Of a DNA stretch of 64,000 nt, positions 1-55,413 are shown piece after piece. The position numbers and the translations under genes are program-made. The notes under the pieces are model-generated. The model was not told the origin of the DNA and made no database searches. It was given only the letters and a program-made list of their open reading frames with translations. Position 1 is the first letter of the stretch. Each line of letters begins with the position of its first letter. The DNA comes from Eremomyces bilateralis CBS 781.70 (taxonomy: Eukaryota). The stretch lies in assembly GCA_010015585.1 (NCBI GenBank), contig ML975167.1. One strand, given 5' to 3'.

Positions 1-392
1 AGGCCGTAGCCTTCTCGCCGGACGGCAAGACGCTGGCGTTGACATCGCGCGACAAGACGGTCAAGCTGTGGGACGCCTGGTCGGTCGCGCTGCAGCGGAC
101 GCTCGAGGGCCATGGTACGCTCTACACTCTTTCTTTCTCCGACGATGGTACCCACCTCCAGACGAATAGAGGATCCTTACCTATCTTATCTCTTTCCTCT
201 ACCGGTTCAGACGGCCCCGACCCACTGGTTTCCCCCTCTATATTTGTCAGGGACCAATGGGTGTGCAGTCAAGCCGGGCCGATCCTTTGGCTTCCTCCCG
301 AGCATCGGACAAACTGCATCGCGGTTCATAAAAGCGTTGTTGGCTTTGGGTATACATCTGGAAGAGTAATAGTTATGGAACTAGCTCTGTGA
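1..392 (+). CDS. 3' end of HET-E-like WD40-repeat (probable NACHT-WD NLR) protein, truncated by window edge
   Basis: Frame from nt 3 reads AVAFSPDGKTLALTSRDKTVKLWDAWSVALQRTLEGH (HET-E-type WD repeat), then the typical C-terminus LSFSDDGTHLQTNRG...DQWV...ILWLPPEHR...GYTSGRV; stop at 390-392. The NACHT domain is not visible and is inferred. Confidence 0.8.
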   Translation, partial: AVAFSPDGKTLALTSRDKTVKLWDAWSVALQRTLEGHGTLYTLSFSDDGTHLQTNRGSLPILSLSSTGSDGPDPLVSPSIFVRDQWVCSQAGPILWLPPEHRTNCIAVHKSVVGFGYTSGRVIVMELAL

Positions 393-698
393 GCTTTCTT
401 CAAACCCCTCCCCGCCCACCTCCAATACTAGGCCATCTCTCTTTAGAATCAACCCCTGTAGGTTTATTGATCAGGGTATTCGTAATCATTGGGAGGAAAC
501 GCGTAAATAGCTGAATCGCTCAAAAACAACATCTTCGCAACGGATGGTCCTGCGCGTACAGTGGGCGATAATAGTGAGTGACATTTCGGCAGGGACAAGA
601 ACCAATGAGAAGACGCCACGTATTCAGGGGCGCATCAAATTAATTGCAGCGATGGATGGGCAGGAGACACGAAGACTATCTCCCCATATCCCTCGTTG

Positions 699-886
699 TG
701 TTACGGCACGGTAGCTGGATGCACACAACATACACGTAGCCAAAGATATTCTAGATTAAGCTAAAGAAGAGAACAAGAAGGGGAAGCTCTCTTGTTTACA
801 TCGGAGAGGTTGGACTCTGATTCACCCTTGGCCTAATCAGGCTTAGGCTCTCAGCCTTAGCCAACCAAGGGTTTCAACCCATAACA
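699..886. mobile_element. Solo LTR (188 bp)
   Basis: Begins TGTTACGG and ends CCCATAACA (TG...CA, imperfect terminal inverted repeat). Flanked by a 5-bp direct repeat CGTTG at 694-698 and 887-891. Confidence 0.85.
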
Positions 887-954
887 CGTTGACTAAGTAT
901 GTATGGTACCAAGTCCAGCCAATGGCAGGCGAGCCGAGTAGTACTACGGTGAGA

Positions 955-1044
955 GAGTTCCCACGTGGTCACCCACCGTAGTACTATTCCATCTCTAACC
1001 TGCTTGAGTACGGCAGAGCGGACGGGATGCCCTATTCAGGTTGA
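955..1044 (-). pseudogene. 5S rRNA gene fragment (5S nt ~14-105) of an interrupted copy
   Basis: Matches the intact copy from 1640 onward except one substitution and a 2-nt deletion; lacks the last 14 nt of 5S. Confidence 0.92.
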
Positions 1045-1505
1045 CGGGGCTCACTCCGCTCCGGATATACTTCGGATAGTTAGGAGGTACGTACAGGAAC
1101 TTGCACTTGGCTGTCGGTCTCCTTTCCATCTGCCGTCTGCATTTCAGTGGATGGGAATGCCTACTATTCCTCTTCGCCATCTTCCTGCCTTCGATCCATT
1201 CCTTATAGCCTATAGTACTGCGATATCATGCGGTCTTGCTACGTATTTCTCGTTTCCCCCGTATAGAATCAATCTTATAGTTATGAGATTCTTGAAGACG
1301 AAACTAAGTAGTCAAGGGTATGAAGCGTCGAAAGCATGCAACATTATCATCCATCCTTGATTCATTCACCCCTGCAACCCATTCACACCCATTCTCGAGC
1401 CTATCGCTTGCGAGCAAAAGCAGCCGATTTTGTAGGGGCAAAAGCAGTTTTCGTAGGGTCTTTCCCTCAGAAAATGGAGGGATTTGCTCCGTCGTCCTCG
1501 TTTTG
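1045..1505. mobile_element. 461-bp non-coding insertion inside a 5S rRNA gene
   Basis: Lies between two collinear parts of one 5S gene; TTCAGGTTGA is duplicated at 1035-1044 and 1506-1515. Subterminal tandem repeat GCAAAAGCAG...GTAGGG at 1414-1437 and 1438-1458. Confidence 0.75.
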
Positions 1506-1528
1506 TTCAGGTTGATGTGGCCGTATGT
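1506..1528 (-). pseudogene. 5' fragment (nt 1-23) of the interrupted 5S rRNA gene
   Basis: Minus strand ACATACGGCCACATCAACCTGAA is identical to the 5' end of the intact copy; its upstream flank diverges after 4 nt. Confidence 0.88.
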
Positions 1529-1625
1529 ACTAACAATGGAAGCTTTTCACACCATAAACGACCATTGATCCATTTTGCCCACTAAAAACTTGGCACAATG
1601 GCCATAAAAATATAAAAATATAAAA

Positions 1626-1744
1626 ACATACAGCAATAGGAGTTCCCACGTGGTCACCCACCGTAGTACTATTCTATCTCTAACCTGCTTGAGTACGGCA
1701 GAGCGGACGGGATGCCCTATATTCAGGTTGATGTGGCCGTATGT
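1626..1744 (-). rRNA. 5S rRNA, intact (119 nt)
   Basis: ACATACGGCC...CATCCCGTCCGCTCTGCCGTACTCAAGC...TAGTACTACGGTGGGTGACCACGTGGGAACTCC...GCTGTATGT. Helix I (ACAUACGGC/GCUGUAUGU) and helix II (AACCUG/CAGGUU) pair. Followed by T-runs (Pol III terminator). Confidence 0.96.
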
Positions 1745-2138
1745 ACTAGAAAACGCAAGTTTAGGCATGATATACTAAAAAAGTCCAATCATACATGCAA
1801 CTTGTCAGAGATAGTGTGGCCTGAGTGGGGGATCCATATCTGAATCGAGCCAAGCACCCCTGTGCGCAAGAGAATAGAAAAGATCTCGACTGACCGCGTG
1901 GAATTCCCTAGACATCAGGAACCACAACCAATGCCTCACACGGTGGGCTACCTAAACCCTTCCTTCCATCGAGCAGAGTTGAGCCTCGTTTTCCATCCTT
2001 CGCCAGGCTGCGGTTGACGTGCTCATAAGGCAATCACAAAGACTCTGTTCTTATCTCTGGCTTGGGCTGTCGAGTATGCGTAGAGAGGTAATAGGATGTA
2101 TGGGTATAATGCAGAAGTCCAAACTTCATACCTTCAAT

Positions 2139-2385
2139 TCATGTCACAGCTGTGGTCATGAAATGCTCTTGGCATAACTCTAGCGGCCGAACAACCTGCT
2201 TGATGATTTCGCCTCGCCAGGATCGATTCCCATCATTCGCGCCCGTGAAGCACCACTTCACAGCGGAAGCGTAATCATCACCACCTTCATCACCCACACT
2301 TAAACTCTATTTCAGCGCAGCCATTAGATCGAAAGCGTGCTTTGCATCTCCGGTCCCGGTTGGATGCTTTTTACGAAGAGGGTGG
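2139..2385 (-). pseudogene. C-terminal relic of a fungal protein, truncated at the MITE terminus
   Basis: Reads HPLRKKHPTGTGDAKHAFDLMAALK*SLSVGDEGGDDYASAVKWCFTGANDGNRSWRGEIIKQVVRPLELCQEHFMTTAVT*. The internal TAG is at 2307-2309. The G..YA.AV.WC...VV.PL pattern resembles C-termini of fungal kinase-like/HeLo-associated proteins (family call tentative). Confidence 0.55.
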
Positions 2386-2858
2386 TAGGGCTGGACACGA
2401 ATAAGGAATTTGGCTATTCGTATTCGACTTTTCCTCTTGAACGATTATTCGTATTCGACTAAGTTTTGAGACGTTTTATTCGTATTATTCGCGAATATTC
2501 GTAAATAATGCCAAGACTTATTCGGCAAAAGCCGAGCCAATGAATGAATGCCCAGCAGTCGCGACTTTTGTTTACCCGAACACGATCTGGAGGATTTGAG
2601 CTCTAAGAGATACAAAGCATATCAATAGCGTCGAATTGATCACTCCTGACGATTCAGCAAGCCAAGTGACCCCAGCGCAAAGCTCTCTGTCGACCATCTC
2701 TCCGATGCGAGATACATGGAAATAGCTTCAGAGATAGACGAATAATTACGAATAATTACGAATAATGCGAATATTATTCGTACGAATATTAGTAAGCGGA
2801 AATTCTAAATTTTATTCGTATTCGACTACGAATTGTCGAATATTCGTGTCCAGCCCTA
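2386..2858. mobile_element. hAT-like MITE (473 bp)
   Basis: Perfect 18-bp TIR TAGGGCTGGACACGAATA (2386-2403 and 2841-2858). Many subterminal TATTCG/CGAATA repeats at both ends; no ORF; no TSD. Confidence 0.85.
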
Positions 2859-3000
2859 AAGCAGATGATCAATAGTCAATACAACAAATAATAATAATAA
2901 TAATTCAATTTAACGTGCTATCCGGTTCCCGTTAGGGTCTATGAACACGGTCATTTGACTATTTAGTATGTCGCGGGTAAAAGTTTCCCCATAGCCAGGG

Positions 3001-3960
3001 CTATAGGTACCTAAAACCCCGCCTCCTCCTTCGTGGTGGTAATTGTCCTTCCGTTTTTGCCTTCGATACAACAAATACAGGAAGAACCTTGCCTCTTCGA
3101 AACAGCGCGTCAAATTCGAGCATAGGATAGAATCTATACCATTCCTGCTTCCTGAAATTCATGACGTCCTCACGCCATCGGCAATTGAATGCGTTAGACA
3201 ACAGGATCTACAGCACTAAAAGGAGTAAGACAACGTCGCGACGGACATCCTTGCTCTAGCGTATTTGAGAAGATAAATGGTCTTCCATTTCGTCATACTC
3301 TACAAGATATAAGGAATTCTGGGTCGATATTACTACTAAGTTGCCTTGACGACGATCATTGGCGCTATCGACGTGAGCAAGGACAGTCAATACGCCACTC
3401 CAAGGCCATACCAGTCCATCCTCGAGCCGCTTCCTGCTCAAACAAGAGGTACGCCAAGGAGGAACGTGGCTTCAACTCGTAGAGATCCACCGGCTTTTGA
3501 ACGACGTGTACCACCTTCTGTCCCTCGATTTCAGCCTCCTCCTCCACCCAGTGTCAATCACTTGCTGACCTCCTACGGCACCTAGGCACCTCTGTTTCCG
3601 TGTCAGATCCCCCATCTGCTCCAGATACGACTGTTGTGACTACTTCTATCTCTCTCTCAGTCCCTGCGCTTGTTCCTATGACAATTCCTACATCTACACC
3701 AATTTCGAATCCTGTAGCCACTTCTGTATTTTTGTCAGTCCCTGCACCTACTCCTGCATCTTCTCCTACTCCATGCCATTTGTCTCCACCCGTCTCTATT
3801 ACTGTGCCTATCATTACGGCTCGATCCCTTCCACAGTCTGCCGGGCAACCTCCGTGGTTGGAAGAGTTCTTTGCTGACATCGAGCGTCGACGGCTTCGGC
3901 CCACTCTGCATGACTGCAGTGACTTTAACAGAGTGACCAGTTTTTTGGCAGAGACAGGGC
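3001..3960 (-). pseudogene. Gene relic with a Gln-rich coiled-coil segment inactivated by C-to-T changes (RIP-like)
   Basis: From 3774 downward: ME*EKMQE*VQGLTKIQKWLQDSKLV*M*ELS*EQAQGLRER*K*SQQSYLEQ; all 7 stops are TAG in Gln-like contexts. More TAG/TAA/TGA stops lie up- and downstream. Boundaries approximate. Confidence 0.55.
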
Positions 3961-4637
3961 AGGAAAAGGGCCCGACAGAATTGATTGAAGCACGGAATAT
4001 GGCTCTCACTACAAGCAGAGTGTATGCTTCCTGCAAGAGCAGGGTGCCTTAGACATTGAATAGGAATCTGGGGAGTACACTAGATGTGAAGACGTAGAGT
4101 TTTGCCGACCTTCGCGCTCGCTTACCTTTTACGTCAAATTGCCTATTGCAGCGATACGCTGCCGCAATTCGGTGCACTAGGAAAAGAATTAGTGAGATCC
4201 ACGCGAATAATCAAGTCTTCGCCAGGTTCAGTAATTACGCAGTTGGGATGTCGGACATGACACTCAAGACCGTGTGACACGCTAACCACCACGCTAATAA
4301 AAGGAGACCAACACGACTAGTTAAAACAAAGTCAATAACTATTGATTGTAGCAATTCAGTATATAAAGGTCTTCTACACAGGTAGTTTACGAGTGCCGCA
4401 GCCAACTCGTGACAGACCGAAGTTGTTTTCATCACATTTCGTAATGGGAGGTTTTGTTATTGCGCGTGGCCAGGGGGCCAGCTGGGCGCAAATGAGAATC
4501 GTGACGCATTCCGTGCGCCCACCATGGGCCCAGCTGGATAGAAATGTTTGAACACGTCGCGATCTGGGGGATGATCCTAGAGTAGTAGTAGGCTAATAGA
4601 CTTGATTCGATGGATGGTGCGGTCATGCTCCCCTAGA

Positions 4638-4647: not shown

Positions 4648-4923
4648 AGGGTGAGTAGCATACGTGATTGTCTGGGATCATCTGTCAAAGACGGAGCTTA
4701 TCCACTGCGATATCTGATACCAGTAACGATGGATAGACAATAGATAGACAATGGTAAAGTTGCGTGATCTATAAGCTATATTCAACAATACGCGGGGAGT
4801 TTTAAAAATGTGCCGAATATCCGGAAGGATAGATAAAATCAGGACTCAACGACACGCGGAAGGAAAGCAGAGACTCTTAAATTATACTTTGAACTCATTC
4901 AACAAGAGAACACGTTAGCAAAT

Positions 4924-6190
4924 ATGGCACCCTCAGCAATTGTGGCACCCGCAGTGACGGAACAGGATGTTCCAATCGTTACCAAAGGCAGACCGCAGCC
5001 GTTGGCATCGTCGGGCCTCCTCGATCAATTCGAGCAATTCGATGTAACCCCAGTCATCGGCACGGAGTTCTCAAGTGCCAACCTGGTCGAGTGGATTAAT
5101 GCTCCGAATGCAGATGAACTTTTAAAGGAATTGGCCATCAAAAGAAAGCACCCCATACTAATATAGGTGTGCTCTAGACTAACAGACTCGTAGTCTCCCA
5201 GCGCGGTGTGGTTTTCTTCCGTGCCCAAGACGACCTCACGAACGATATTCAGAAGGTATTGGTTCAGCGACTCGGCGAACTGACAGGAAAGCCAATAACC
5301 TCGGGCCTGCACATTCACCCGGTATTGAACCCTAGCCAAGAATTTGGAGGAACCGATCCGGAGATCAGCACAATCAGCTCTGCCCAGCACAAGAAGCGTT
5401 ACAGCGTCGCTCCAGGTGAAAAACTCACCGCAAAGCCTCCGAGCGCTGAATACTGGCATTCGGATATCGCCTTCGAGCCAGTCCCCGCTGATTATTCCTC
5501 GCTTCGACTTATTGAACTACCCAGGACGGGAGGAGGTGGGTAGAACTCAGATCGTCGCCAGAGGTGGCGCTAACAGCCATTATAGACACCCTCTGGGCAT
5601 CCGGATACGAGCTCTACGACCGTATTAGTGAGCCATATCAGAAGTTCCTTGATGGTCTCACGGGCACCTTCGCCCAACCGGGATTAACCGCCGCTGCAGC
5701 TCGCGGTGACGTCAAGGTCTATGACAAGCTCCGCGGTGCACCCGAAAACGATGGTAGCTCGTTCAAAGCAGTGCATCCCGTTGTGAGGACCAACCCTGTG
5801 ACTGGTTGGAAGAGCCTTTTCCCCGTTGGTGACCATATCCACCATATCAATGGAGTGACGGAAGAAGAGTCCAAGTCCCTCCTGAGCTGGTTCTTAGACT
5901 TGGTATACAAGAACCACGACCTGCAGGTCCGCTTCCAATGGAAGAACCCGAATGATATCGGTAAGCATCCCGTCATCCCAAGGGAGTTAAGGCTCAGAGC
6001 TGACATATGACTAGCGATCTGGGACAACAGAAGCACCTTCCACCGCGCAACCTTCGATTATGACGGCCAGGGTGAGCGCTTCGGTAATCGAGCGGTAGGA
6101 GTGGGTGAGCGACCGTATTTTGATCCCAATAGCAAATCACGCAGGGAAGCTCTGCGCGAGCATGCTCCTGGAGAGAAGATTCAGGTATGA
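4924..6190 (+). CDS. TauD/TfdA-family alpha-ketoglutarate-dependent (sulfonate) dioxygenase, JLP1-like; 3 introns
   Basis: Motifs DVTPVIGTEF, SQRGVVFFRAQD, WHSDIAFE (HxD), TGGDTLWAS, HPVVRTNPVTGWKS, AIWDNRSTFH. First intron 5144-5193 has a GA donor. Confidence 0.92.
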
Positions 6191-27924: not shown

Positions 27925-29963
27925 CTACCAAAGGGTTCTCCCTGCCTTCACCTCCTTCAGGAGCTCGTCATCAGCAAGCGCCTTGGCCAGATCCAACAAC
28001 ATCAAATCACAGTTGCGATGCGCGAGCAGATCGATCGCCACCGGCAGCTTCTCCTCCACGCCCGAGATGGTGCTCTGGTACGGCACCTCTCCGATTGGGA
28101 AGACAACTTCGGGGCCCTGCGACTGCACGCTGTAATAGTACGGCGTGAACGACGCCCACGAGCTGACGTCCGGCGGGGAGTACACGTTGTTGCGGTATGA
28201 CGTGTCGCCCGTCGCCATGGGGATGAGGAACAGACTCTCCGAGCAGGACTGCGGGTCCGACTTGACGACGTTCTGGCCGAACCATTCCTTGAAGAACTGG
28301 AACCGCTCGTAGGACGTGTCGAAGTCCTCCTGGGTCGTGTTGAGCGCGGTGAGGTAGCGTGCGGCCGGGAAGGGGTTGATGAACGGTGTGCGGCCGCCGT
28401 TGGCGGCTGCGTAGTCCTCGCGGAATGGGGTGATGACTTTTTCGAGCTGGTTCTTCCAGATGAGGTGAAATCCTACCATCTGCATGTAGCTCGCGAACTC
28501 GGTGTCGGGTTTTTGGGCCGTGGCGTTCCAGTAGTCGCCGATGGGGGCCGTCTCGACCGTGGCGTTGAGGAAAGTGGAGAGCTTGGCGATCCAGTTGGTG
28601 AACAGCTCCTGGCTGGCATTGTTGGCGACGGGCCACAGGTTGCCCGGAACGATCAGCTTGCGCGGGAAGCTGGTGTAGTTGTTCGTCATCTGCTCCGAGT
28701 CGCTCAGCCACGCTTTCCCGAAGTCCCGAAGCGTGTACGGTGAACGGGAATGATAGCCGACGGAATCGAAATATGACCCCTCAATCAGGACGCCTTCGTT
28801 GGAGACGGCGCCGAAGGAGGGCCGCAGGCCGAATACGCCGTTCTTCCCCGCTGGGATACGGATCGATCCTCCGGTATCCGTAGCGATCGAGACATCGACC
28901 CAGTCGTACGCACCGGTGGATGCGCCAGCACCGGCGCTCGAGACCCCTGGATCCTGGTATCCATCTCCTCGTGGGTTGAAGGCGTCGCTGTAACATGGCG
29001 ATCAGTCACTGGCACATGAATTTGAAAAGGAGGACTCACTGGTAGTCGACCCAATCCGCAGTGGGTCGGTCAGAATTGGCGAATTGGGCCGTCTTCGTCT
29101 TGCCGATGATGTCCGCGCCAAGGTCGATGAGCTTCTGCAATCCAGGAGCGGACGCATCCTTGGCATCATACAGTTTGAACCACGCCCTATTCCCCTGACT
29201 GGTCTTGACGCCCTTGATATCAATGATATCCTTCACAGTGACTCGTAGTCCCTTGAGGGGTTGGTCCTTGGATTGCTGGTTCTTGGTGTATAGGCGAGAT
29301 GGGACGGGAATTCCGACGGTAGAATCGCTGATGGTATTGGCGGTCGCGTATCGGAACGCACCGTCTGTACCGTTGGGCAAGAGTCCGCTCATGAAGGCCA
29401 TGTGGTCATCCTGGTAAATCCGATAGACTGGACCGAGAGTCGCAGTGTTTTTGCCGAAAGAGGCAAGGTATGGTCCATTTGGAGCATCGCCATCTGTTTT
29501 GACGGAGAGCGTGCTCTCGGAATCCCTCTCTCCAAAAATAACTTCGGTTCCATATGCTTCTTTCAGACACTTGGAGAGTCCTCGCTCGTACGAAGTGGCT
29601 TTCTTCAAGTATACAGCTACGACCAACCCATGTCAGTGACCAGGCTCCGAATATGAGAACGATGATAATCTTACCATAGAGAAACAGCTCCTCGAAGATA
29701 TCATCTTGGTGGTATGCCTCGACCTGCTCCTTGACCCAGGCGCAAGTCACCGTCTTGCCAGATGGAGTGAAGACAGTTAAAGGGAGTATCGAAGGGAGAT
29801 CGGCGTCCTTGCTGTTGACATCGAATCTTGACGTCCATCCAGAGAAATAGCCGATGAGCTGCTCGCCAGTCGTCGGGCTAGTGATCGACACCGAATCCGG
29901 CGTTGGGGATGACAGGGAGTTCAGAGCGAACGAAGTCTTGATCAGACTCCAAAGCGAAGGCAT
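27925..29963 (-). CDS. Amidase signature-family protein (probably secreted)
   Basis: PLKGLRVTVKDIIDIKG, GKTKTAQFA, NPRGDGYQDPGVSSAGAG, TDTGGSIR; introns at ~29627-29672 and ~28988-29040. Confidence 0.88.
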
Positions 29964-32900
29964 CTTGACTATGTTGACGTGATCTGCAGCGCGCAACGCC
30001 GGGTGAGGGAACGGGCTCACGGTTCTTTATGCAGGTTTTGAATTGGAACATCTTATCTCCCCACGAGCGGACCCTCCGCCACGAGGGCAATGAGGAATGC
30101 ATCTGCGTTAGGGACCTGGATACCATGAGGGCATCGTGGGGGGAAGGCCATGCCTATCAAGAGGCCTTCCGGCGAGCCAATTGACTCGAGCGATTTGAGC
30201 GATTTTGGTTGCTATATCGCCTAGAACGATCCTTTGTATGGAGGATGAGGAGAATTTGGGATGTTGTCCGTAGATTCTACGGGACCCAATGTCAAGAGCG
30301 TTGCCGACGGCCGTCAAGATATCGCGAACTTATGATAAAGCCAGTACGAAATAGTCCACCAAACCTTAGGATGGATCCTAGAAGAGTTAGTACGGCTCTT
30401 AAACTGGCGAATTGGCGACATATTTTACCATTTATGACAAACATATGACTGATGCGCAGTATGTAGTAGTGAGTTCCACATCGTCCCTGGCCTCAGATCC
30501 CGGACTCCTGGTGCGAAATCCGCGAGATCTTATCTGGCCGCAGTCGGAGACGGTCAAGATCGGCACATTTGAAGGAATACCAACGCTCCCGACATTCAGT
30601 GATCGGTTATGAGACGGTGCCGTTCGGGTCCCAGTGAGTCCCGGTGGGATGGCGGATGGTTCGCGCAGGTTAGCATGAGACAGAGCCCACAAAAAGGAGG
30701 GGTTGGGTTAGGAGAACGATATTGTACGCGATAACAATGATCTTCTTAGCAATTCAATATTGTAGGTTCTTTTCGGGTAAATGAAGGGTAAGAGATCAAA
30801 TATCAATATCACCAACATCGACTCCTTGTGTTGGTTGCGCTGCTCATACCTCTGTCGAATACTCGATACCTGTGCCTCGATCACGTCTCAGCACCGCCAC
30901 CCACCGAGTTGGCGACGAACTGGGCAGTCTTCGATGGCGACACGACTTATAGAAATGTGGCAACAACATGATACCTATAGATTTTCTCCCTGAGCGGTTA
31001 AGAATGATAAAATAGGGGCTGCCCGATTTAAAGGAGTTTCGGTTTCGGTTGCAGTGAAGGCGCTATCAGCCCTAGTGCCTTGGTGCCTCAGAATCTCACG
31101 TGCAGGTCCATATCATCCACAATCTATAAGTTATGTGATGAAAGTTAGCAAGCTCTCTACCCGCCCGCAGTATGGTTCAATGATCTAATCCCAATCCCAG
31201 TGCAGCGTTTATGGCGTTCATTGGTTCGGAAGGACACCCATTGGCTCAACCCGAGGGATGGTCGATAGATGGGATTGCTAAAAATGGGAATTTAGGGCAC
31301 ACTCTCCAGTTCTGCAGGCACTTCTGCTGCAAGGGTCCAACGAATTCAGGGGTCGTCGGATCAATGGCGAAAAGCAAGATTGATGAATTCCGAATTTCTG
31401 ATGATGGTCACCTTTCCCCGCGTCCTGGGAATAAAATTCGGTGGGAACGGGAAAGTACGGGTCTGATGAACCGGCGAACGGACCAGGAGGAGAAAATATT
31501 CCGACTGGCGATCTGATATTGCCAGTAATTGGTATATGTATTACGGAATCCTTCTACTAGCATTTTCCGATCCTCTAAATTGAGAACCGTTGGTTCTGGA
31601 AATTCGAGATGGTATATATGCAGGGTTACATGACCGGAGCAAGCCCCTTGGGTCGGATGGCATCGACTGGATCTAGTGACTCGCTATGCTAGCAGACGAC
31701 GACAATGCGATTCGCGGAGCGGATGCAGGAGATGGTTAGATGGCACAGCCGCTTGGGGGAAGGGTTTGCGGCCAATTGGTTAAGGCCCAGGGAGAGCTGT
31801 GTTAAGGTTGGCGAGTTGAAGGAGGGGGTTCTGGGAAGCCATCGTGGAACCCCTCCATGATGATCCAGCGAGGTCGTACAACGATACGAGGGAGGATCGA
31901 GGCACTTTCTTACATAGTAGGGATAAAGAGAAGCAGAGCAAACATATGGTGGATTGTGCGAGCCTTGCGGGTCTTACGGCTAGATGCTTAGAGTCGAAAA
32001 TGATACAGTTCCAAGTTCCAACACTGAACACCGTCCGCTTATGCAAGCCGTGAGCCGCAAGGCAGATCGCCAGGAAGCCAGGAGGTCAACATGTGATATT
32101 ATGCCAGTCTGTAATCTGTATCCAAGTGTCCACGGCCAAAATATGGTGGCCAGTGAACACCAAGCGAGTGGACACTTCCACGCTTACGGAGTATTAGTAC
32201 TCCGTACCGACACTGCTGATGTCGATCCTGCAAGAGAATAATCCGCCGTCCTGTGACCCCCTGGAGAAAAGTTGGTGGGAGAGCCGAGTTGAAGAAGTCA
32301 GAGGACATGCGGTCGGGAAGTCTGGGGTAATAAGGAGGTTCGCTGAGTTGGCTGGTGTTTCAGACTTTTTTTTGGTGGCAGCAAATGAAGTCAGTCGATC
32401 GTCGGAGGAAGTGTCAGTCAGCTGTCTGTGCCGCTCCCTTTGTGCCCAATTACTGTCTCTCTAGCCTCACGACTCCCTCTCGCTCTCCTCTTCCTCGCTA
32501 TCAAGTGTCACCCACGCTGTGTCTCGGTCCCGGTCTCACGGAGCCTTTCTGCTGTTCTAACTTCTGTCGTCTGTGCTGACTACTGTCGCCTCGCAGCTCG
32601 CAGGCTGTTGTGCTTTGGTTCACTGCTCCCTTAGCCACCCAACTTATCCTACATCTTCTATCAACTTGTCCATCAACTTGTCCATTCGGGTCAATTCAGC
32701 CATCCCTTACTCTCCTTTTCACCATACATTCACGATCTTTTCCATGAATCCTGTTGACTCCCGACTTCGATTTTATCCGTGAGGACCGGTCGAAGCGATG
32801 CGTTCATGACACCGCCAGCGCTGTCCCCTTTTTCCTCCTCCAACCTCCCGCCTCATAGGGGGGGCTACCAGTAATCCAAGATTCCAGGGAGATCACCTTC

Positions 32901-33543
32901 GTTGCTCACGATTCCGATCCTCGTATCCTTCCGTGCCTGGATTTCCCTCGAAATTCGGCCCGACGCCTCGTTTCCGTGCAAAAGTGCGAGCGAGTTTCGA
33001 TTCCAACCTCCGGACTTTTTTTTAGGCGAGGCGGAAAAGCGATAGTGCACGTCGCATTCCTCGTCGAGCAGTCCGCCCACACCACACGTCCGATTGAAAG
33101 AAGACGAGTCGACGCGGTTCGGGTCGACGTCGCCAAATCGGACTCACGATCCTTCTGCGTTCACCGCATGACGCCGAGCGAGTACCGGTATAAGGCTGAT
33201 ACTTGATCGCGCGTTGACTGGGTCCGGTCGTCCTCCGACCCGTGAAACTTGCACGATTCCTCCGGCCTGGTTGAGCTGAATGCGTGAGAACGCGGGCATA
33301 GGACTGACTCTCCACATCATACCTTCTAACGACCGTTGACGTTGAAAGACGACGTTCCTTTCTACGTACAATTCGCGAATTGGCCGAATCTGCATCCTTC
33401 ACAAGCGAGCGTCCTTCATTTCCCCGACCGTTCGACATCCGTCCGCATCGCAATCGATCGCGACCTATCCCCTCGACTAGGCCAGGTCTCCGAATCCACC
33501 AGCCGAGGGCACGCCGCACCGTCGCCCGACGTCGTCGCTCACC

Positions 33544-36500
33544 ATGGCCTTCCTTTTCAAGTCCCGGAAATCGCAAGCGGCCCCGTCGGGTCTGCCGCAA
33601 GCAACGCGGGCCACATCCTCCTCTCACGGCCCGTCTACGAACACGTCCTCGATGATACCCACGGCGAATGGCGAGAAGAGAGAGAACTCAACGCCCGGGA
33701 GTAGCGTCAATAATTCGCTGAACAGCTTGCAAAACGAGCCGACAGGAATGACGGCAGTGGTGGGTAGACAAAGAGCGGAGAGTGACCTCTCAGTAAGTTG
33801 CGACTCTTCGACTGCAGAGGAATATGTCATGAACATGTTCCTGGCAATGGAGCTGAACGGAGATTCCATTATTTCCCAATTGCCATTGTTGCGCCTGTAT
33901 GCATCTTACACACCCGGAAACTAACAACCGCAATCATGTAGTCATCCCGACCCAGTACTCGCACTCCAACAGCCGCGCCCTCAGCCGCCTTCACACAACT
34001 GCCCCCGGGTATGTCTCCCGAATCACCCTATCCCTGGTCGCAACGCCGCTTAAACTTCACCGCGGCGAACCCATTCCCGCGATATGGCGCGGCTGTGAAC
34101 GCGATGGCGTCGAAAGAAGGCTACATCTACCTCATGGGCGGACTAATCAACGGCACGACCGTCAAAGGGGATCTATGGATGGTAGAAAGTGGGATCCTGA
34201 ACCCAAATAACCCGCCCACGAGCACGGAAAAGTTCGGCGTGATGGATTGCTATCCCGTCCCGACGAGAATGGAGGGTCCCGGTCCTAGGGTCGGCCATGC
34301 AAGTCTGCTTGTTGGGAACGCGTTCATTGTGTTTGGCGGTGACACTAAAATGGAAGAGGGAGATGTGTTAGATGACACGCTCTATCTGTTAAACACGGGT
34401 GAGACCAGGCCAACGTTTATTGTTTGATCCGCACACTAAACGGAATCCAGCAACGAAGCAATGGTCACGCGCCATTCCCGCTGGCTCGCGTCCGTCCGGA
34501 CGATATGGACACACGCTGAATCTTCTAGGATCGAAAATCTACATTTTTGGTGGCCAGGTGGAGGGGTTCTTCTTCAACGATCTAATCGCATTCGACCTGA
34601 ATCAGCTTCAGAATGCAGGAAACCGATGGGAAATCTTGGTCCCTAATGGAGAACATGACAAAAATGGGCAGCGCATTCCTCCGCCGCGCACAAATCACTC
34701 CATTGTTGCATGGAACGATCGCCTGTATCTGTGAGTGGAACCATATCTTTTGCGGAGAACGATGTTGATTTGGATTTAGATTCGGTGGTACAGACGGCAC
34801 CATTTGGTTCAACGATGTCTGGACATACCATCCGGGAACCAACGCTTGGACCGAACTGGACTGCATCGGATACATTCCTGCTGCTCGTGAAGGGCACTCC
34901 GCAGCGCTCGTCAACGACACCATGTATATCTTCGGCGGTCGCGTCCAAGAGGGCTCCGACCTGGGCGATCTAGCGGCTTTCCGAATCTCTTCCCGGCGAT
35001 GGTACATGTTCCAGAACATGGGCATGTCGCCATCACCACGATCGGGCCACAGCATGACCAGCTACGGCAAGAACATTGTCGTCGTCGGCGGCGAGCCGAG
35101 CTCGGCGCCGCGAGACGTGGCCGAACTGAGCGTCGCATACATCCTCGACACGAGCAAAATCCGCTATCCGACCACCGAGCCACCCTCCGGAACCCCAGTA
35201 CCCGGAGGAATGATTGTGCAGCAGCAGGACCGTGCAACACCGCAGAGAAAATTTTCAGGAGGCGAGGGACCGCCGGGCCCGCATGCGATGCGAGCAATTG
35301 GACCACCGCCGAGTTCGGGAATCCCGCAACCGCAGCAGAAATCGCCACCCCAACTTCATGTCCAACCCGTCAACGGTACCTCTCCCTCACCAGCTCTTGG
35401 ATCGAGACTACCCCAGCCAGCTCCGAGAGGGGCTGGACCACCACAACAACAGCCACCCCGTTTGAACGGCGTGGTAGCGACGACGTCCCCCGCAGCCGCG
35501 GCGATGGCAGGGGCAGGCGCTGGTGGTCGAAAAACACCGACACGATCCGACCGCCCACCACACGGCGTCGAGCAGGACCGGAAACAATCGCAGGAGCTTT
35601 CCCGATCCACGAGCGGTGCCACTTCGCAACTCCAGATGAGCAGGCAAGGCAGTCGTTCGGACAGCCGCTTGCAGCGTGGACAGGGCAGTGTCGATAGCAT
35701 TGAGGCGATCGAGCGGGGGATGGGGCGACCCAATGTAGATGGCCCTTCAACAGGCAGGTCAGGGAGTCGCATGGACAACGCGCCCGCCCAGCAACCGCAA
35801 GATACAGACGATGGGCCACCCGCTGCAACTGCTCTCGCGGCCATCGACTCCGGCATTGGTTCCTACGGCTCCTCTCCCGCTCTCTCCCAAGATCAGACCA
35901 CAATGGACAACGTGCAGCGCGAACTGGAGAAACTCCGCTCGCAAAACGCATGGTACGCCAGCGAGATTGCCCTGGCCCGCAAATCCGGCTACGCGCCGAC
36001 CTCCACGCCATCCTCCTCCACCAACCCATTCCTGTCCACCCCCACCGCCCCCAACCCTCCCCTATCCGACCGTGCCTCCATCTCGAACCCCGACTCCCTC
36101 CTCCCCAACATCGCCGAAGAGGACCGCCCCCTCGTCGAGGCCCTCCTGCGCATGCGCGCCGAGCTGTCCCGCGTGCAGCAGAACATCGAGACGCAGGCGC
36201 AGCGCGCCGCGGCGCGCATCGCAGAGGTCGAGAAACAGCGCGACGGCGCCGTCGGCGAGGCGATGTACGCGCAGGCGAAGCTCGCGAGCATGGGCGCGGC
36301 GTCCACAAGCGGGACGCCGGTCGGCGAGCGCGATCGGTCGATGAGCGTGGCGAGCGTGGGGCGGCGGGCCGGGTCAGCGACGCCGACGACGATGTTGGCG
36401 GAGGAGAACGACCGGGTGCAGGAGATGGGAAGGCGGTTGGCGGCGGCATTGGCGGGGCAGAAGGAGGCAGGGAAGCGGGCGGATGGTCTGCTGGCAGAGT

Positions 36501-38662
36501 TGGAGGCGGAGAGAAGGGCGAGGCAGTCGGCAGAGGATACAGCGGATACGGCGCAAGCGAGGGTGACGGAGTTGGATGCGTATCGGCAGCGGACGGTGGG
36601 TGAGGTGGAGGGTTTGAGGGCGGAGTTGCATGAGGCAATGAGGGTCGCGAGGGAGGAAGGGGCGAGGGCGGCGGAGGCGGTTGGGAAGGAGCGGTTGGCG
36701 GAGGTGGAGCTGGAGGAGCTGAGTGACCGAATGAGGGGCCTTATTGGGGATGAGAAAGGCGGTGAAGAGGGGGGACTCGGTGGGTTCGTCAAGAGTTTGC
36801 GCGAGGCGGTCAAAGAGAGCGCGGAACGAGTGGAGCTGATCGAGACCCGACTGCACGAGGAGCGGGCCCTGCGGGAGGAAAGCGAATCGAAGATCGTCCG
36901 ACTCAAAGGGGAGCTTGAGGAGCGCGCTATGGAGCTCGAAAGCCTGTCCCGGAAAACGCGAGACGCCGAGGACATCGCGGAACGACACGCGGGCGAGGCC
37001 GAGAAGCACCGACGCGCCGTGTCCGAAGGACTCGATCGGTGGGTGGCATCAGCCGGAGGCGGCGGGGGCAACGACTCGCGACTGGCCGCGCTGCAAACGC
37101 AAATCGAGACGGCGAACGCGCTGGTCAAGCAAAATATCGAGGCCGCGGATACCGCGTCGGAGAAGTTGCGCCGCGCCGAAGAGCGCATTGCGGGCCTAGA
37201 ATCCTACCAGGAACAGGCTAGTCGCGAGAGCTTGAATGCCCGGAAACAATTGCAATCGGCTATGCGTGAGGTCCAAGCGCTACAGGCCGAGAAAAACGAG
37301 TTCAACGCCACCGTGGAGAAGCATATGCTCGAGAGCAACGCTCTTGAAGTGCAGCTCCGCACGCTGAAGTCGCTGCTAGAAGACCGTGGTGTCAATTCCG
37401 CCGAGATGCGCCGCTCCCGAATCCTTGACCGCGAGTCCCCGCTTGGTCAGCGGTACGGCACGCCGGATGTGGGTCGAATGCGCGAACTCGAGCAGCAACT
37501 GGATCATTCGGCGAAGGCGCACGAGGAGCTGCGCATGACCTTCGAGCAACGGGAACAAGAAGTCCAACGCGAATGGGAAGAGAAGATCGCAGCGTTGGAC
37601 AACGACCATCAAGCGGCCGCCCGTTACGTCCGCGGCATCGAGAAGATGCTCGCGAAGATGAAAACCGAGCTCACGCGCGCCAAAGATCGCAATGTCGAGC
37701 TCGAGAAGGAGCTCAGCACGAACATCAACGGCGATTCGCCCCGGGACGGCGAGGCCGACAAATTGGCTGAGAGCCTTGCGGAGAGCCAAAAGGCATGGGA
37801 AACCGAACGGAAGGAAATGCGCAAGGAGTTCGGCGCCCTCCAATCGGAGACGCAAACCACCATCGCCACGCTCGAAGTCAAAATCACCTCCCTCCAATCC
37901 TCGCTTTCCTCCGCCGAAGAAGAACGTCAAACCCTCGCCAAATCTGCGAAAGACGCCACCGAGGCCCAGGAAGCGCGCCTGCAGGACCTCACCACCAAGT
38001 CGGCGGCAGACCTAGATCATCTGCAGAACGAGAACGCCCTTCTCGAAGAACGCGCCCGCGACGCCGAGCGCCGGGTCCAGATGTTCCTCGACCAGTTTGA
38101 ATCGTCCGTGGATAACTATCGTCGCCAGAGCCGCCTCGAAGGGACCCCTGGCATGCCTGGCGCTGCGTTAGCGGCCCTAGACCACAATCCTCACGACTCA
38201 ATCAGCGGCGAGAGCGTATACAGCACCGATAGCGCTCTACCTACCGGTGAAGACGATGATGACGATAGCGGCGACGTGACTCCCTCCGCCGCGCAGTTCC
38301 CGATCATCTCCCCCCTCGGCACCACACCTGGCACCACTAGCATCGGCCACGCGCGCGACCGCAGCAGCACCGCGCTCGACAGCCTAGCCTCCGAGCTCGA
38401 CGCGCTGCGCACGCAGTGGGAGACGACGAACCAGGCGTATCGGCTGAGCGACCGGTTCGATTTCGACGGGCGCACCCCAACGTTCGAAACGCAGGGGTTC
38501 ACCTGGGGACAGCGGCTCGAGCAGCAACGGTCGAAAGATGAGGGCGCCGCGGGCGGGGAGGTGAAGGGGGATGGGGCGGAGACGACAGAGGAGACGAAGA
38601 ATGCGGTGGTCACGGCGGCGAGTATGGGCCCGAATGGCGTGGGCATCGTGACGGGCGTTTAG
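33544..38662 (+). CDS. Kelch-repeat cell-polarity protein (Kel1/Tea1/TeaA-like)
   Basis: YPWSQRRL, PFPRYG, PGPRVGHASLLVGNAFIVFGGD, GRYGHT, REGHSA, PRSGHS kelch repeats followed by a long coiled coil; 3 introns. Confidence 0.93.
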
Positions 38663-43499: not shown

Positions 43500-45129
43500 A
43501 TGTCTAGCGGGCAGCTGTTGAAGGCCGAAAAGGACTTTACAAAGGAGGCCGACCAGCTGATTCCCGAAGCAGAGCAGCTTGCAAAGGTACATATCCAAAC
43601 GTCCGCTTACAGCCAATGGTCTCACGTTTCCTAGTCCGATATCAATGGAGCGATCGAGAAACTCCTTGTGCTGGAGAAGAAGGCTCGACAGGCCTCCGAT
43701 CTGGCCTCGACGAGTAAAGTCCTTCTCTCGATTGTCAACATGTGCAAGGCTGCCGGAGACTGGTCATTGCTAAATGAGCAGGTGCAACTCCTATCGAAAA
43801 AGCATGGTCAGCTCAAACAGGCGGTCACCAAGATGGTGCAGACGGTCCTCGGATTCTTAGACGATACTCCGAACACGGACGTCAAGCTATCTGTCATTGA
43901 TACCCTGCGGACGGTGACGGAAGGGAAGGTATTGCTTCCCTCGTATCTATAATGGGAGGAACAGTTTGCTAAATATATGCCAGATCTTCGTCGAAGTCGA
44001 GCGAGCCCGAGTTACCAAAATCCTCAGTAACATCAAGAAGGAACAGGGAGACATCAAGGCGGCCACGGAGATTCTATGTGAGCTGCAAGTCGAGACGTTC
44101 GGGTCGATGACTCGCCGCGAAAAAACCGAGTTCATCCTGGAGCAAGTGGAGCTATGCGTCGAGAACGGCGACTGGACACAGGCCGGGATTTTGAGCCGGA
44201 AAATCAGCACGAGGTACTTCGGCCGTAAACCGAAGAAAAGCCCGGAACAACTGGAGAAGGAGAAGAAGGAACGGGAAGAAAAAGAGAAGACGAGGAGTGC
44301 CGACGAGCCACCGCCAGAGCCGGAAGATGATGTGACGGATCTGAAGCTGCGGTACTACGAGCTCCAAGTCACTCTGGCAAAGCATGATGACAAATATCTA
44401 GACACCTGCAAATACTATCGACAGGTGTTGGACACGGAGGCGGTGGAAGAAAACGCACAACAGCTCACCGCGGTATGTTAATCACTCTCCATCTCTCCAA
44501 TACGAAACTAACAGCAACAGGTCCTACAGAGAATCATCTACTTCATCATCCTCGCCCCCTACGATAACGAACAATCCGACCTCCTCCACCGCATCTTCCG
44601 TGACTCCCGCAACGAGCAACTCGTCAAAACCGACTACAAGCTCCTCGAGAAGTTCACCAAACCCGAAATCATGCGATGGCCCGAAGTCGCCGAAGTCTGG
44701 GGCGCCCACCTCTGCTCAACCGACATCTTCTCTGCCAACGACGATCCGAAGGACCCCAAAGCCTTCCAGCGGTGGCAAGACCTCCGCAAGCGCGTCATCG
44801 AGCATAACGTGCGGGTGATCGCGAAGTACTACACGCGGATCGGCATGTCGCGGCTCCAGCAGCTGCTCGACCTCGAGGGCGACGAGACGGAGAAGTACAT
44901 CAGCGACCTAGTGACGGCGAAGACCATCTATGCTAAGATCGATCGGCCCGCCCGAGTCATCAGTTTCGCCAAGCCACGCGATGCGGACGATGTGCTGAAC
45001 GAGTGGAGTGGAAACATGAAGAGTTTGCTGGGGTTGCTGGAGCGGATCGATCATTTGATCACGAAGGAGGAGATGATGGCCAGGATCAAGCCGGTGGGGT
45101 CAAAGAGTAAGGGGGAGACGGCAAGCTAA
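43500..45129 (+). CDS. RPN5: 26S proteasome lid subunit Rpn5
   Basis: LEKKARQASD, SKKHGQLKQA, TEGKIFVEVERAR, ELQVETFGSM, PCI domain EHNVRVIAKYYTRI; 3 introns. Confidence 0.96.
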
Positions 45130-53152: not shown

Positions 53153-53293
53153 GGTGGTCAACATGGTAGCTTGTAAGACTGGTTGAAGTGGTATGAGGCC
53201 AGATGGGCTAAATGGGTATTACGCGATCTCGAGCGCTGATTGGCAGTAATCACCCTGCAAAGTGCAAATAGCCTTCCCAAAGAATGAACAATA

Positions 53294-55105
53294 AGTTCAA
53301 CCCCCTGTCAAGTAGCCAACCACTCGAGTAGCCAGTATCACCATCTCAACCTCCATCGGTCAGACAGCAATATCTCTACTAAAACATATTATATTTGGAA
53401 ATCTATACAGCATGATTCAAAAGATACAGCTTGGAGAGACTCTGATGTAGATTTGGCCTCCGAAATTGGATGTCTTCGTTGGTAATCTTCCTCTACCGCT
53501 CGTACAGCTTCTTGTGCCAATTTGATCTCCCGAACTTGCGCAAACCTCTGATTAAGATCTATCTGAACTTTCTTTTTACGTTTTGGTGCTGTAGCAGCAT
53601 CAAGGCGTGCCTGTAAGCCCGCGATTTTCAGATCTGATGAGGCCTGACGCGCCTGTAGCACTCCGATCGCCTTGGCTGCCTTCTCTATATACGACTTCGT
53701 CGTCTTTGCCACGCGTGTATTCTTGCTAAGAACGCGTAATGCACTCTGTACCTGTTTTGGCTTGTAGGGCGTCGTCTGGAGAACGGAGGGGACTGGTATG
53801 GGGGTGCGTGGAGGCGTGTTTGGTGGTGGAATTGGTGGTGCGGTTACGGTAGGCGGTGACGGTACAACGAAGCGGTTACTGAGGCCCTTTGACCGGTCAA
53901 ACGGCACAAGTCCTGCAGCCTTCCACCCAGATCTGATTGTACGGTCGGTTAGGCGTGCCTGACGTGCCTCTGCATAGAGGACAATGAATCTCCGTCGTTT
54001 AATCGGTAGGGCCTCGTCGATATACGCGCTTTGGCGGAGGAGGGTCTTATAAAAGCGTTTTAGAGGCGAAAAACAGGCGAGATCCAGAGGTTGAAGGATA
54101 TGGGAGGTATGTGCAGGTAGGAAGACCACGATTACGTTGTTTATCTTGCATTCGTACAAGAAATCGATGGTTGCGTGGCTACCGTGCCCGTCCATTAGCA
54201 GAATCCGGTACTGCCGCTGTGTAGCGGTTTCAGGCAGGAAAACCGTACGGAGCCAAACCAACGCGTGTTGATTTGAAGTCCAGCCGTTCTCTGATACCGT
54301 ATAATGGAAGTCTGGAGGTTGTTCAGGGAACCAAGAAGACTGTAACGTGGCGCCTTTCTGTATAATCGCTGGTCTGATGTACTGGCCGGTCGCGGAGACA
54401 GTTTCAACGATACTAATCCATTCGCGGCCCATAGGACTAGTGATATAGGCCGTTGACTTCTGCGAGTCTGCGATAACCGTAGAATTAGCGCAAATCCCTA
54501 GTCCTATACCAACCTCATCCATATTCCAGGTATCAGAGGGGTGGACATCGTACTGAGTTTGAACTTGGTGAAAATACGTGTAGAACGCGTCGATTGTATC
54601 CTTAGTTGCAGCCTGACGTCGGGCAACATCAAGACTACGCCCGATACAGGTCGCAACGCGTGGATTACGGTGTAGGAAACGCGTTACCCAGTTCTTCCCG
54701 AGGGGCGTTGAGTCTCCTTGGAGGCGTAGAACTCGAGATGCCATTTCGCGAAGCCGTGCGTGAGTAGGGGGGAATCCTTGAGCGTCATTTTCAAGTATCC
54801 AGTCGACTAAAAAGGATTCTTGGTCCGGTGTAAGGCGTTGGCGAGATTGTTGAGCTACTACGCGTGGTAGGCGGCCTTTTAAGCGGGTTTGAAGGGTGCG
54901 TCGGTTGACCTTGAATAGCGCCGCAGCTTCGTTTTGTGATTTGCATTGACCGGTCTGTAAGGCATCAATAGCCTGTTGGACCGGGTCTTCCGAGTTTGGT
55001 ATCATGATATTGTACGGTGGTGGAGATATCGCGGTTAGAGAGATGGTGATAGAGGTGGTGATACTGGCTACTCGAGTGGTTGGCTACTTGACAGGGGGTT
55101 GAACT
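53294..55105 (-). mobile_element. Intact Fot1/pogo-type (Tc1-mariner superfamily) DNA transposon, 1812 bp
   Basis: Perfect 50-bp TIRs (53294-53343 and 55056-55105) with an internal AGTAGCCA direct repeat; TA TSD at 53292-53293 and 55106-55107. Confidence 0.96.
53389..55005 (-). CDS. Pogo/Fot1 transposase (HTH_psq/CENP-B HTH + DDE_1)
   Basis: 538-aa open frame; WNMDEVG, LMDGHGSH, PAHTSHILQPLD catalytic motifs; GKNWVTRFLHR. Confidence 0.95.
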   Translation of the reverse strand: MIPNSEDPVQQAIDALQTGQCKSQNEAAALFKVNRRTLQTRLKGRLPRVVAQQSRQRLTPDQESFLVDWILENDAQGFPPTHARLREMASRVLRLQGDSTPLGKNWVTRFLHRNPRVATCIGRSLDVARRQAATKDTIDAFYTYFHQVQTQYDVHPSDTWNMDEVGIGLGICANSTVIADSQKSTAYITSPMGREWISIVETVSATGQYIRPAIIQKGATLQSSWFPEQPPDFHYTVSENGWTSNQHALVWLRTVFLPETATQRQYRILLMDGHGSHATIDFLYECKINNVIVVFLPAHTSHILQPLDLACFSPLKRFYKTLLRQSAYIDEALPIKRRRFIVLYAEARQARLTDRTIRSGWKAAGLVPFDRSKGLSNRFVVPSPPTVTAPPIPPPNTPPRTPIPVPSVLQTTPYKPKQVQSALRVLSKNTRVAKTTKSYIEKAAKAIGVLQARQASSDLKIAGLQARLDAATAPKRKKKVQIDLNQRFAQVREIKLAQEAVRAVEEDYQRRHPISEAKSTSESLQAVSFESCCIDFQI

Positions 55106-55413
55106 TAGAACAAAAATCAAGTTCCACTCCTCTGTCTGCCAATCCAAGCCACATGCGGAGAAGCTTTTGGAATGATGCTCTGATTGGAACATTTCACCTA
55201 ACAATGAAGGCGTCATCGCACGTGCTTAAACTTGTTCATATCTATCATTCTCCTCGCCCACATTAAGCAGATGCCGTATAAGGATGAGAGTCCCCGATTG
55301 GGGCCTCGAGTTAATTTATATTCTAGATTCGGAATATTCGAGTATCCGGACAAGGCATTGAGATTTTAACTCTTGGATTTTCGGTCATACAGCACGATAC
55401 AAGTAAGGCAAAC

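Follow-up and report, generated by a model that had tools for sequence, protein, structure and literature searches.

A 5S rRNA pseudogene truncated at both ends, with an inverted filler at its 3' break, beside an intact 5S gene of Eremomyces bilateralis

Results

5S rRNA sequences in the window

We analyzed a 64,000-nucleotide stretch of Eremomyces bilateralis CBS 781.70 DNA (GenBank assembly GCA_010015585.1, contig ML975167.1), referred to here as the window; coordinates are window positions, and nt numbers refer to the 5S gene. Rfam recognizes two 5S rRNA matches in the window, both on the minus strand: a full gene at 1625-1744 and a partial match at 951-1044. The full gene is intact, scoring 85.2 bits over model positions 1-120, and is followed on its own strand by T-runs from 1624 down to about 1600. 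The partial match scores 47.2 bits against a gathering score of 38 and covers model positions 14-109 only. When the complete 5S gene with 40 nt of flank is used as a BLAST query against the 64-kb window, this second copy is delimited to 955-1050 on the minus strand, where it corresponds to nt 8-105 of the intact gene (93 of 98 alignment columns identical, with one 2-bp gap) and where the ungapped stretch 955-1035 differs at a single position (80/81 identical). The same search returns a head fragment, nt -4 to 23, at 1506-1532 on the minus strand, identical to the intact gene at all 27 positions, and a short inverted piece at the 3' break of the partial copy. Besides these four, BLAST finds no other 5S-like DNA in the 64 kb; no further repeats of 1-3000 occur within the window, and no tRNA or weak Rfam match lies in 1-4000 beyond the two 5S sequences.

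The intact gene, the head fragment, and the partial copy share one strand and all lie within 800 bp. Read along that strand, the order is the intact gene, 92 nt containing T-runs, the head fragment, 455 bp of other DNA, and the partial copy. A metagenome scan with a 23-nt piece of the window 5S returns four loci, each on a short contig and each an intact 5S gene from another fungus. The window was also compared with contigs from three sequencing runs: X1 and X2, which come from one sample that is possibly the window's own source, and X3, an unrelated run. At 1675 the intact gene carries T (A in the RNA, at about nt 70), where the X2 and X3 contigs and the neighboring partial copy carry C; judged by this comparison, the intact gene in the window may be a minority variant at that position.

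The initial annotation of this DNA had described an interrupted 5S copy that stops at 955 without its last 14 nt, and the Rfam and BLAST alignments agree. The copy ends as ...GGGAACTC at 955, after nt 105, and the last 14 nt of the gene (nt 106-119; plus strand ACATACAGCAATAG) are missing. That description had overlooked the loss of nt 1-7 at the 5' end, a 2-bp TA deletion at about nt 25-26, the head fragment and intact gene nearby, the inverted copy of 5S sequence at the break, and the absence of a direct repeat there. Substitutions at nt 11 and nt 13 are further changes. Significant similarity to 5S rRNA combined with the loss of both strands of helix I identifies the copy as a 5S rRNA pseudogene, unable to make 5S rRNA because nt 1-7 and 106-119, which form those strands, are gone. 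The copy retains an undamaged internal promoter region (about nt 50-97). From its sequence, the pseudogene would be expected to have no function, except that this region might possibly retain some binding of pol III factors.

The 455 bp between the pseudogene and the head fragment (1051-1505) are not 5S sequence and have no terminal inverted repeats, no Pfam match, and no Rfam match. Their derivation from a decayed 5S flank or head is rejected, as the best local alignments score 42 and 24, below the best shuffled scores of 69 and 34. The spacer includes, at 1417-1463, a short sequence duplicated imperfectly in tandem (GCAAAAGCAG...TTTTGTAGGG, twice). The head fragment on one side of the spacer is collinear with the pseudogene on the other, and the two overlap by 16 nt (nt 8-23) with 14 of 16 positions identical; they may therefore represent one former gene split by an insertion or rearrangement. 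An X1 contig joins 5S-like sequence at 1736 to position 1055 with 5 other letters between, so that the junction of the 455-bp body with the 5' end of the pseudogene exists in a second, diverged copy in the same sample. Its recurrence in diverged form implies that the pseudogene is old enough to have been duplicated. In this paralogous junction contig, the overlap nt 8-23 is present in an unmutated version.

The junction at 954/955

An inverted, foldback copy of 5S nt 71-91 adjoins the 3' break, at 936-956 on the plus strand, with 18 of 21 positions matching. Its core, 939-951, is an exact inverted 13-mer of nt 74-86, found by BLAST on the opposite strand. The initial annotation had listed its feature as 939-1044; the break that it gave at 955 stands, but 939-951 is inverted 5S sequence and not sequence in the orientation of the gene. 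The arms of the resulting inverted repeat (I2; 936-956 and 969-989) are complementary at 18 of 21 positions and lie 12 nt apart, and as a single strand the junction DNA forms a hairpin of -12.1 kcal/mol (z = -2.58). Of 2,000,000 random trials, 34 produced an exact inverted match of at least 13 nt no more than 25 nt from the break (p ~1.7e-5).

No direct repeat of the 5S tail is present at this junction, and the direct repeats matching a 5S motif that would be looked for at element ends are absent from the one junction visible. Across the whole window, the 15-nt tail motif has two matches at up to three mismatches, one in the intact gene and the other, with three mismatches, at 44507. Chance alone would give about 1.0 match, which is the level of the second.

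Templated filler is usually recognized by just such a short piece, copied from nearby sequence in inverted orientation and set precisely at the breakpoint; it is made by the DNA synthesis that accompanies end-joining repair. A tyrosine recombinase exchanges DNA conservatively, without synthesis, and is expected to leave no filler. As it is repair synthesis that makes filler, the sequence at 954/955 points to end-joining repair rather than to tyrosine recombinase exchange.

The left flank

The window opens inside a plus-strand reading frame (3-392), in which Pfam recognizes WD40 at 3.6e-11 and which holds the last 129 codons and the stop codon of a NACHT-WD40-type NLR gene. Comparison of the nonrepeat part of this tail (residues 30-129) with longer proteins leaves 8 of 182 scored candidates that pass, at 56-63% identity, and the named sources of these eight are Dothideomycetes. 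NACHT (PF05729) is present in four of them (P0002, P0004, P0005, and P0008), one of which, P0004, also carries PNP_UDP (PF01048). The initial annotation had taken this reading frame for the end of a HET-E-like WD40 gene, an assignment that the WD40 match and the NACHT-bearing relatives bear out; on sequence grounds, "HET-E-like NLR" appears to be a fair description of the family. None of the 182 scored candidates matches the tail at 100%, and the gene is therefore apparently not annotated.

Over the WD40 repeats at 1-113, contig depth reaches about 28,000-38,000, and contigs rejoin the sequence 105-112 nt further back, across 13-15 variable letters. Near-identical 42-codon repeats that vary at certain positions, as known for HET-E/NWD-type genes, give such a pattern. 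The multicopy WD40 repeats are probably the reason that the scaffold ends here.

Between the NLR gene and the pseudogene lies a 188-bp element with TG...CA ends at 699-886, flanked by a 5-bp target duplication (CGTTG) at 694-698 and 887-891. An X2 contig joins 693 to 887, skipping 193 letters with 5 shared, and thus preserves the precise empty site; in X1, the summed contig depth of 601-1000 is about 60-200 times that of bins covered by a single contig. The ends, the duplication, the very high depth, and the empty site together identify a solo LTR, as had been proposed for the DNA to the left of the broken 5S.

Copy number in the read contigs

Depth was taken in 30 bins of 200 nt, with contigs at least 85% alike summed, and the values are hence coarse. 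X1 and X2 each cover all 30 bins. X3 covers 7 of 30, and its listed pieces are WD40 and 5S sequences only, each 6-13 letters different from the window. Bins 1801-2200 are represented by a single contig with a depth of 169.5 in X1 and 183.6 in X2. To the left of about 1600, the summed depth is roughly 2-5 times that of these bins: it is 850-997 (X1) and 472-496 (X2) in bins 201-600, and 648 (X1) and 308 (X2) in bin 1201-1400, or about 1.7-3.8 times single copy. From the raised depth it follows that the sample contains a few versions, at least 85% alike, of the NLR gene tail, of the 3' flank of that gene, and of the 455-bp body. Unique DNA starts just right of the 5S cluster. This pattern fits equally well a low-copy mobile element that ends at the cluster and a segmental duplication bounded by dispersed 5S genes.

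Among the contigs listed for X1, X2, and X3, none independently bridges 954/955 and none represents an empty site for the 5S break. Two further contig joints connect 1528 to 1127 and 1529 to 1167.

The right flank and the position of the window on its scaffold

To the right of the 5S cluster, Pfam matches identify housekeeping genes, including those for Raptor, Rpn5, RRP40, aspartyl-tRNA synthetase, ALG10, and PSF2. An exon of the aspartyl-tRNA synthetase gene is 100% identical to KAF1810175, and the reading frame of a TauD/TfdA dioxygenase is 99% identical to KAF1810157, both of which belong to a scaffold of 430,866 bp. The two accessions are 18 apart and about 18-19 genes lie between them by Pfam matches, an agreement which indicates that the numbering follows the plus direction of the window. 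KAF1810146, a paralog of the TauD protein, is on another scaffold (398,772 bp), and at most 10 annotated proteins can therefore lie to the left of TauD on the scaffold of the window. The accession order thus suggests that the window is at or near a scaffold end with little or no upstream DNA assembled. The scaffold may begin inside the WD40 repeats, which would explain why the NLR gene was not annotated.

The TauD/TfdA gene itself (4900-6010), part of a TauD-flavodoxin-laccase block, has at least five further relatives in the same genome, on five other scaffolds, whose proteins are 80-86% identical, and the family appears from these identities to have expanded recently. The paralogs account for the higher depth further right in the binned region. 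Within this gene, at 5164-5254, one contig each in X1 and X2 skips 89 nt with GT..AG ends, which reflects either a copy that lacks the intron or the presence of some cDNA among the reads of a run labeled "DNA?".

Two DNA transposon-like elements lie in the same flank. A 473-bp MITE-like element at 2386-2858 has perfect 18-nt terminal inverted repeats (TAGGGCTGGACACGAATA) and subterminal TATTCGTATTCGACT repeats; the summed depth of 2401-2800 is about 70,000-88,000 in X1 against about 170 in single-copy bins, and it therefore belongs to a family of hundreds of copies. A pogo/Tc5-type transposon at 53292-55107, between the aspartyl-tRNA synthetase and carbonic anhydrase genes, contains an intact minus-strand reading frame of 564 amino acids (53392-55083) with DDE_1 and HTH_Tnp_Tc5 domains and is bounded by inverted repeats of 88 nt, 87.5% alike.

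Starship insertion sites and recombinases

The initial annotation had interpreted the broken 5S as the boundary of a large 5S-targeting element of the Starship kind with an NLR gene as cargo. Its two premises agree with the available parts of the literature: Starships insert into and fragment 5S genes (PMC11162782; bioRxiv 2021.12.13.472469; bioRxiv 2024.06.28.601215), and NLRs often accompany Starship captains (bioRxiv 2021.12.13.472469; bioRxiv 2024.06.28.601215). As far as the accessible text and tables of PMC11162782 go, at least five insertion sites within 5S are reported, and the repeats of 5S-targeting Starships are 6-16 bp long and match 5S motifs. Table S1 of that source, in its accessible portion, gives the 15-nt repeat ACATACAACAGAAGG for an Aspergillus niger element marked "targets 5S". 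This repeat aligns at 12 of 15 positions with window 1626-1640, which is exactly the tail absent from the pseudogene, and the pseudogene break falls 1 nt inside the inner edge of this A. niger/Aspergillus welwitschiae repeat. With at least five sites reported, a break would coincide with a known 5S site by chance roughly one time in ten.

Voyager is described, in the sections available, as inserting 20 bp from the 5S start (bioRxiv 2021.12.13.472469; bioRxiv 2024.06.28.601215). Its repeats map to nt 20-31 of the window 5S, at 1714-1725, with 10/12 and 9/10 positions matching. The head fragment ends at nt 23, 4 nt into this site, and the TA deletion of the pseudogene also falls in it. Arwing, according to the same portion of PMC11162782, is one of three families tied to 5S and has the core motif CCCG/GGGC, which is found at nt 28-37 of the window 5S, away from all three breaks. 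Strand conventions vary in Table S1, where the manual and starfish repeats of Aten_Starship2 are reverse complements, and hence we draw no captain-proximal or captain-distal inference from the repeats.

For the genome listed as erebil1, the available supplementary tables of PMC11162782 give 15 Starship recombinases and 0 delimited elements, starfish having been run on one genome of the species (Table S8). The recombinases are distributed as one of fam01, two of fam02, four of fam03, three of fam05, three of fam09 (Arwing), and two n.d. (Table S4), and among the 15 as tabulated there is none of fam06 (Enterprise) or fam10 (Voyager). One, erebil1_461251 of the Prometheus family, is placed as the first gene at the very start of scaffold23 (706-3133, plus strand) in the same material. 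In the window itself, none of the 149 reading frames of at least 110 amino acids matches DUF3435 (PF11917) at E <= 1e-5.

Discussion

The reading we favor, at a probability of roughly 55%, is that of an ordinary 5S pseudogene, neighbor to an intact gene and broken at both ends, whose 3' break was closed by foldback-templated end joining. We infer both the mechanism and the order of events as follows. In a small 5S rRNA cluster of a Dothideomycete genome, one copy would have stayed intact and a second decayed to a nonfunctional pseudogene. A break after nt 105 would have been sealed by error-prone double-strand-break repair, in which the end folded onto itself and templated about 20 nt of inverted 5S filler before it was ligated to unrelated DNA from the intergenic region downstream of an NLR gene. 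That region may later have received a retrotransposon, which collapsed to the solo LTR. The 455 bp with the 16-nt overlap (nt 8-23) would most simply reflect a second and older event in the same gene, either an insertion or a rearrangement.

Truncation at two ends together with an internal deletion, the filler, the lack of a tail repeat, the recurring 5' junction, the lack of a DUF3435 match among the window reading frames, and the housekeeping character of the right flank all support this explanation. Against it stand the position of the break at the edge of the A. niger repeat and the end of the head fragment within the Voyager site, the presence in a few copies of the DNA on the left side of the intact gene, which a mobile element or segmental duplication would give, and the 15 recombinases listed for the genome. 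Repair by end joining also leaves the joints from 1528 to 1127 and from 1529 to 1167 unaccounted for, and it lacks, among the pieces listed, a contig that independently bridges 954/955.

The interpretation given first, in which positions 1-954 form the captain-distal end of a Starship that carries the NLR gene as cargo and entered a 5S gene at its 3' end, with the 14-nt tail upstream at the captain end, is distinctly unlikely. It draws on the break falling at the inner boundary of the repeat of A. niger Starship1, on the documented existence of Starships that fragment 5S, on the recombinases of the genome, three of them Arwing, and on a flanking gene of a type that recurs with Starships. The left flank occurs in more than one copy, as depth and the empty-LTR contig indicate, a recombinase sits at the plus-strand start of scaffold23, and the window, too, lies at a scaffold end, a geometry that would suit this interpretation were the two scaffolds one. 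The rough rank of the scaffold of the window, about 17-21 or 17-23 by accession spacing, does not particularly favor scaffold23, and at most 10 annotated genes lie upstream. A fresh insertion leaves the repeat on both sides, so that the distal 5S should look complete, yet the tail is absent here and an inverted filler stands in place of the tail repeat. The pseudogene is moreover cut at nt 8 as well, at a junction that recurs in a diverged second copy; the Arwing motif is not at the break; and neither an Enterprise or Voyager recombinase among the 15 listed nor a DUF3435 match among the 149 window reading frames has been found. If the end of a 5S-targeting element is instead placed at 1505/1506, near nt 20-23 of a second 5S gene, the head fragment becomes a target remnant and the pseudogene and NLR gene lie inside the element; in a variant, the 455 bp are a small insertion of their own with a 16-nt repeat of nt 8-23. 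Here the collinear head fragment, spacer, and pseudogene, with their 14/16 overlap, and the paralogous junction contig with its unmutated overlap are consistent with an element end, the more so as the repeats reported for 5S-targeting Starships in the available sources are 6-16 bp long and the reported Voyager insertion point, 20 bp from the 5S start with a repeat mapping to nt 20-31, is close by. Immediately to the right of the 5S cluster the depth drops to that of one contig, but this evidence is coarse (200-nt bins, contigs at least 85% alike summed), and ectopic recombination between dispersed 5S copies also sets duplication boundaries at 5S. The sequence adjoining the head fragment matches a Voyager-type repeat at only 6-7 of 12 positions, the recombinases tabulated in the available part of the source include none of the Voyager family, and the 455 bp lack terminal inverted repeats as well as any coding or RNA match; we consider this placement unlikely. 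Taken more broadly, the 5S cluster could be the captain-distal end of an undelimited, low-copy, NLR-carrying Starship, with its junction at nt 20-23 or at a new nt 8-23 site and with the break at nt 105 as an earlier recombinase cut that was end-joined. This broader possibility is tentative, and we regard it as unlikely.

Two explanations that involve no Starship fare worse. An origin of the partial copy as the head of a 5S-derived SINE (SINE3-like), or as another retro-copy of 5S RNA, would agree with its intact internal promoter region and with the occurrence of the adjoining sequences more than once in the sample. A 5S-headed SINE3 had been offered initially as an alternative to the Starship, but the head begins at nt 8, nt 1-7, where a pol III transcript would begin, being missing; the repeated body lies upstream and not downstream of the copy; neither an A-rich or simple-repeat tail nor a target duplication accompanies the copy; no second 5S head with the same downstream body occurs in the 64 kb; and the copy number by the coarse depth values is low and not in the hundreds. 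Such an origin is extremely improbable. An artefact of short-read assembly at 954/955 could be suspected from the multicopy nature of 5S and the WD40 repeats, visible as depth peaks, from the assembly of this genome from Illumina reads with AllPaths-LG (paper supplement), and from the lack of a listed contig that bridges 955. Yet the window contains no N, the inverted piece of 13-21 nt is below assembler k-mers and so does not form a typical hairpin contig, the pseudogene's own differences make its k-mers unique, and with 30/30 bins covered in X1 and X2 no loose end at 954/955 appears among the pieces listed. We hold an artefact to be very unlikely.

If a link to Starships were nevertheless shown, and some truncated 5S copies were scars left by recombinase cuts at defined positions in the gene, such copies could serve as cheap markers of past Starship activity in species with a single sequenced genome, where insertion polymorphism cannot be used. 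The cluster would then be the first element boundary in a genome with 15 captains and 0 elements delimited by starfish, and aborted Starship events would become a source of truncated 5S copies. As it stands, the window pseudogene is of an ordinary, already-known kind and matters little; the foldback filler at its break is a clean natural example of templated repair.

Comparison with known systems

Truncated 5S copies are common in filamentous fungi and are dispersed in Pezizomycotina genomes. Aspergillus nidulans reportedly has 3'-truncated 5S pseudogenes, and Rooney and Ward in 2005 are said to have described birth-and-death evolution of fungal 5S genes. The pseudogene described here resembles the truncated pseudogenes of Pezizomycotina in that most of the gene body is kept, the 3' end is lost, functional copies are near, and the sequence is diverging. 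It differs from them in that nt 1-7 are lost as well, an inverted filler occupies the 3' junction, and a head fragment lies 455 bp away.

The locus also shares features with Voyager of Macrophomina phaseolina, Osiris of Aspergillus fumigatus, and Anig_Starship1 of A. niger: a 5S gene is fragmented, and an NLR gene lies on the side of the putative element. The cut lies at the edge of the A. niger repeat, which may be coincidence, and the host is a Dothideomycete with Starship recombinases. Unlike at all three elements, the junction in the window has no direct repeat and carries a repair-type filler, and no captain is found among the window reading frames; the recombinase families of 5S-targeting Starships (fam06 and fam10) are not listed for erebil1. 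The closest likeness of the junction itself is to the templated foldback insertions described at end-joining junctions in many eukaryotes, with which it shares a short inverted copy, a source within about 20 nt, and a position exactly at the breakpoint.
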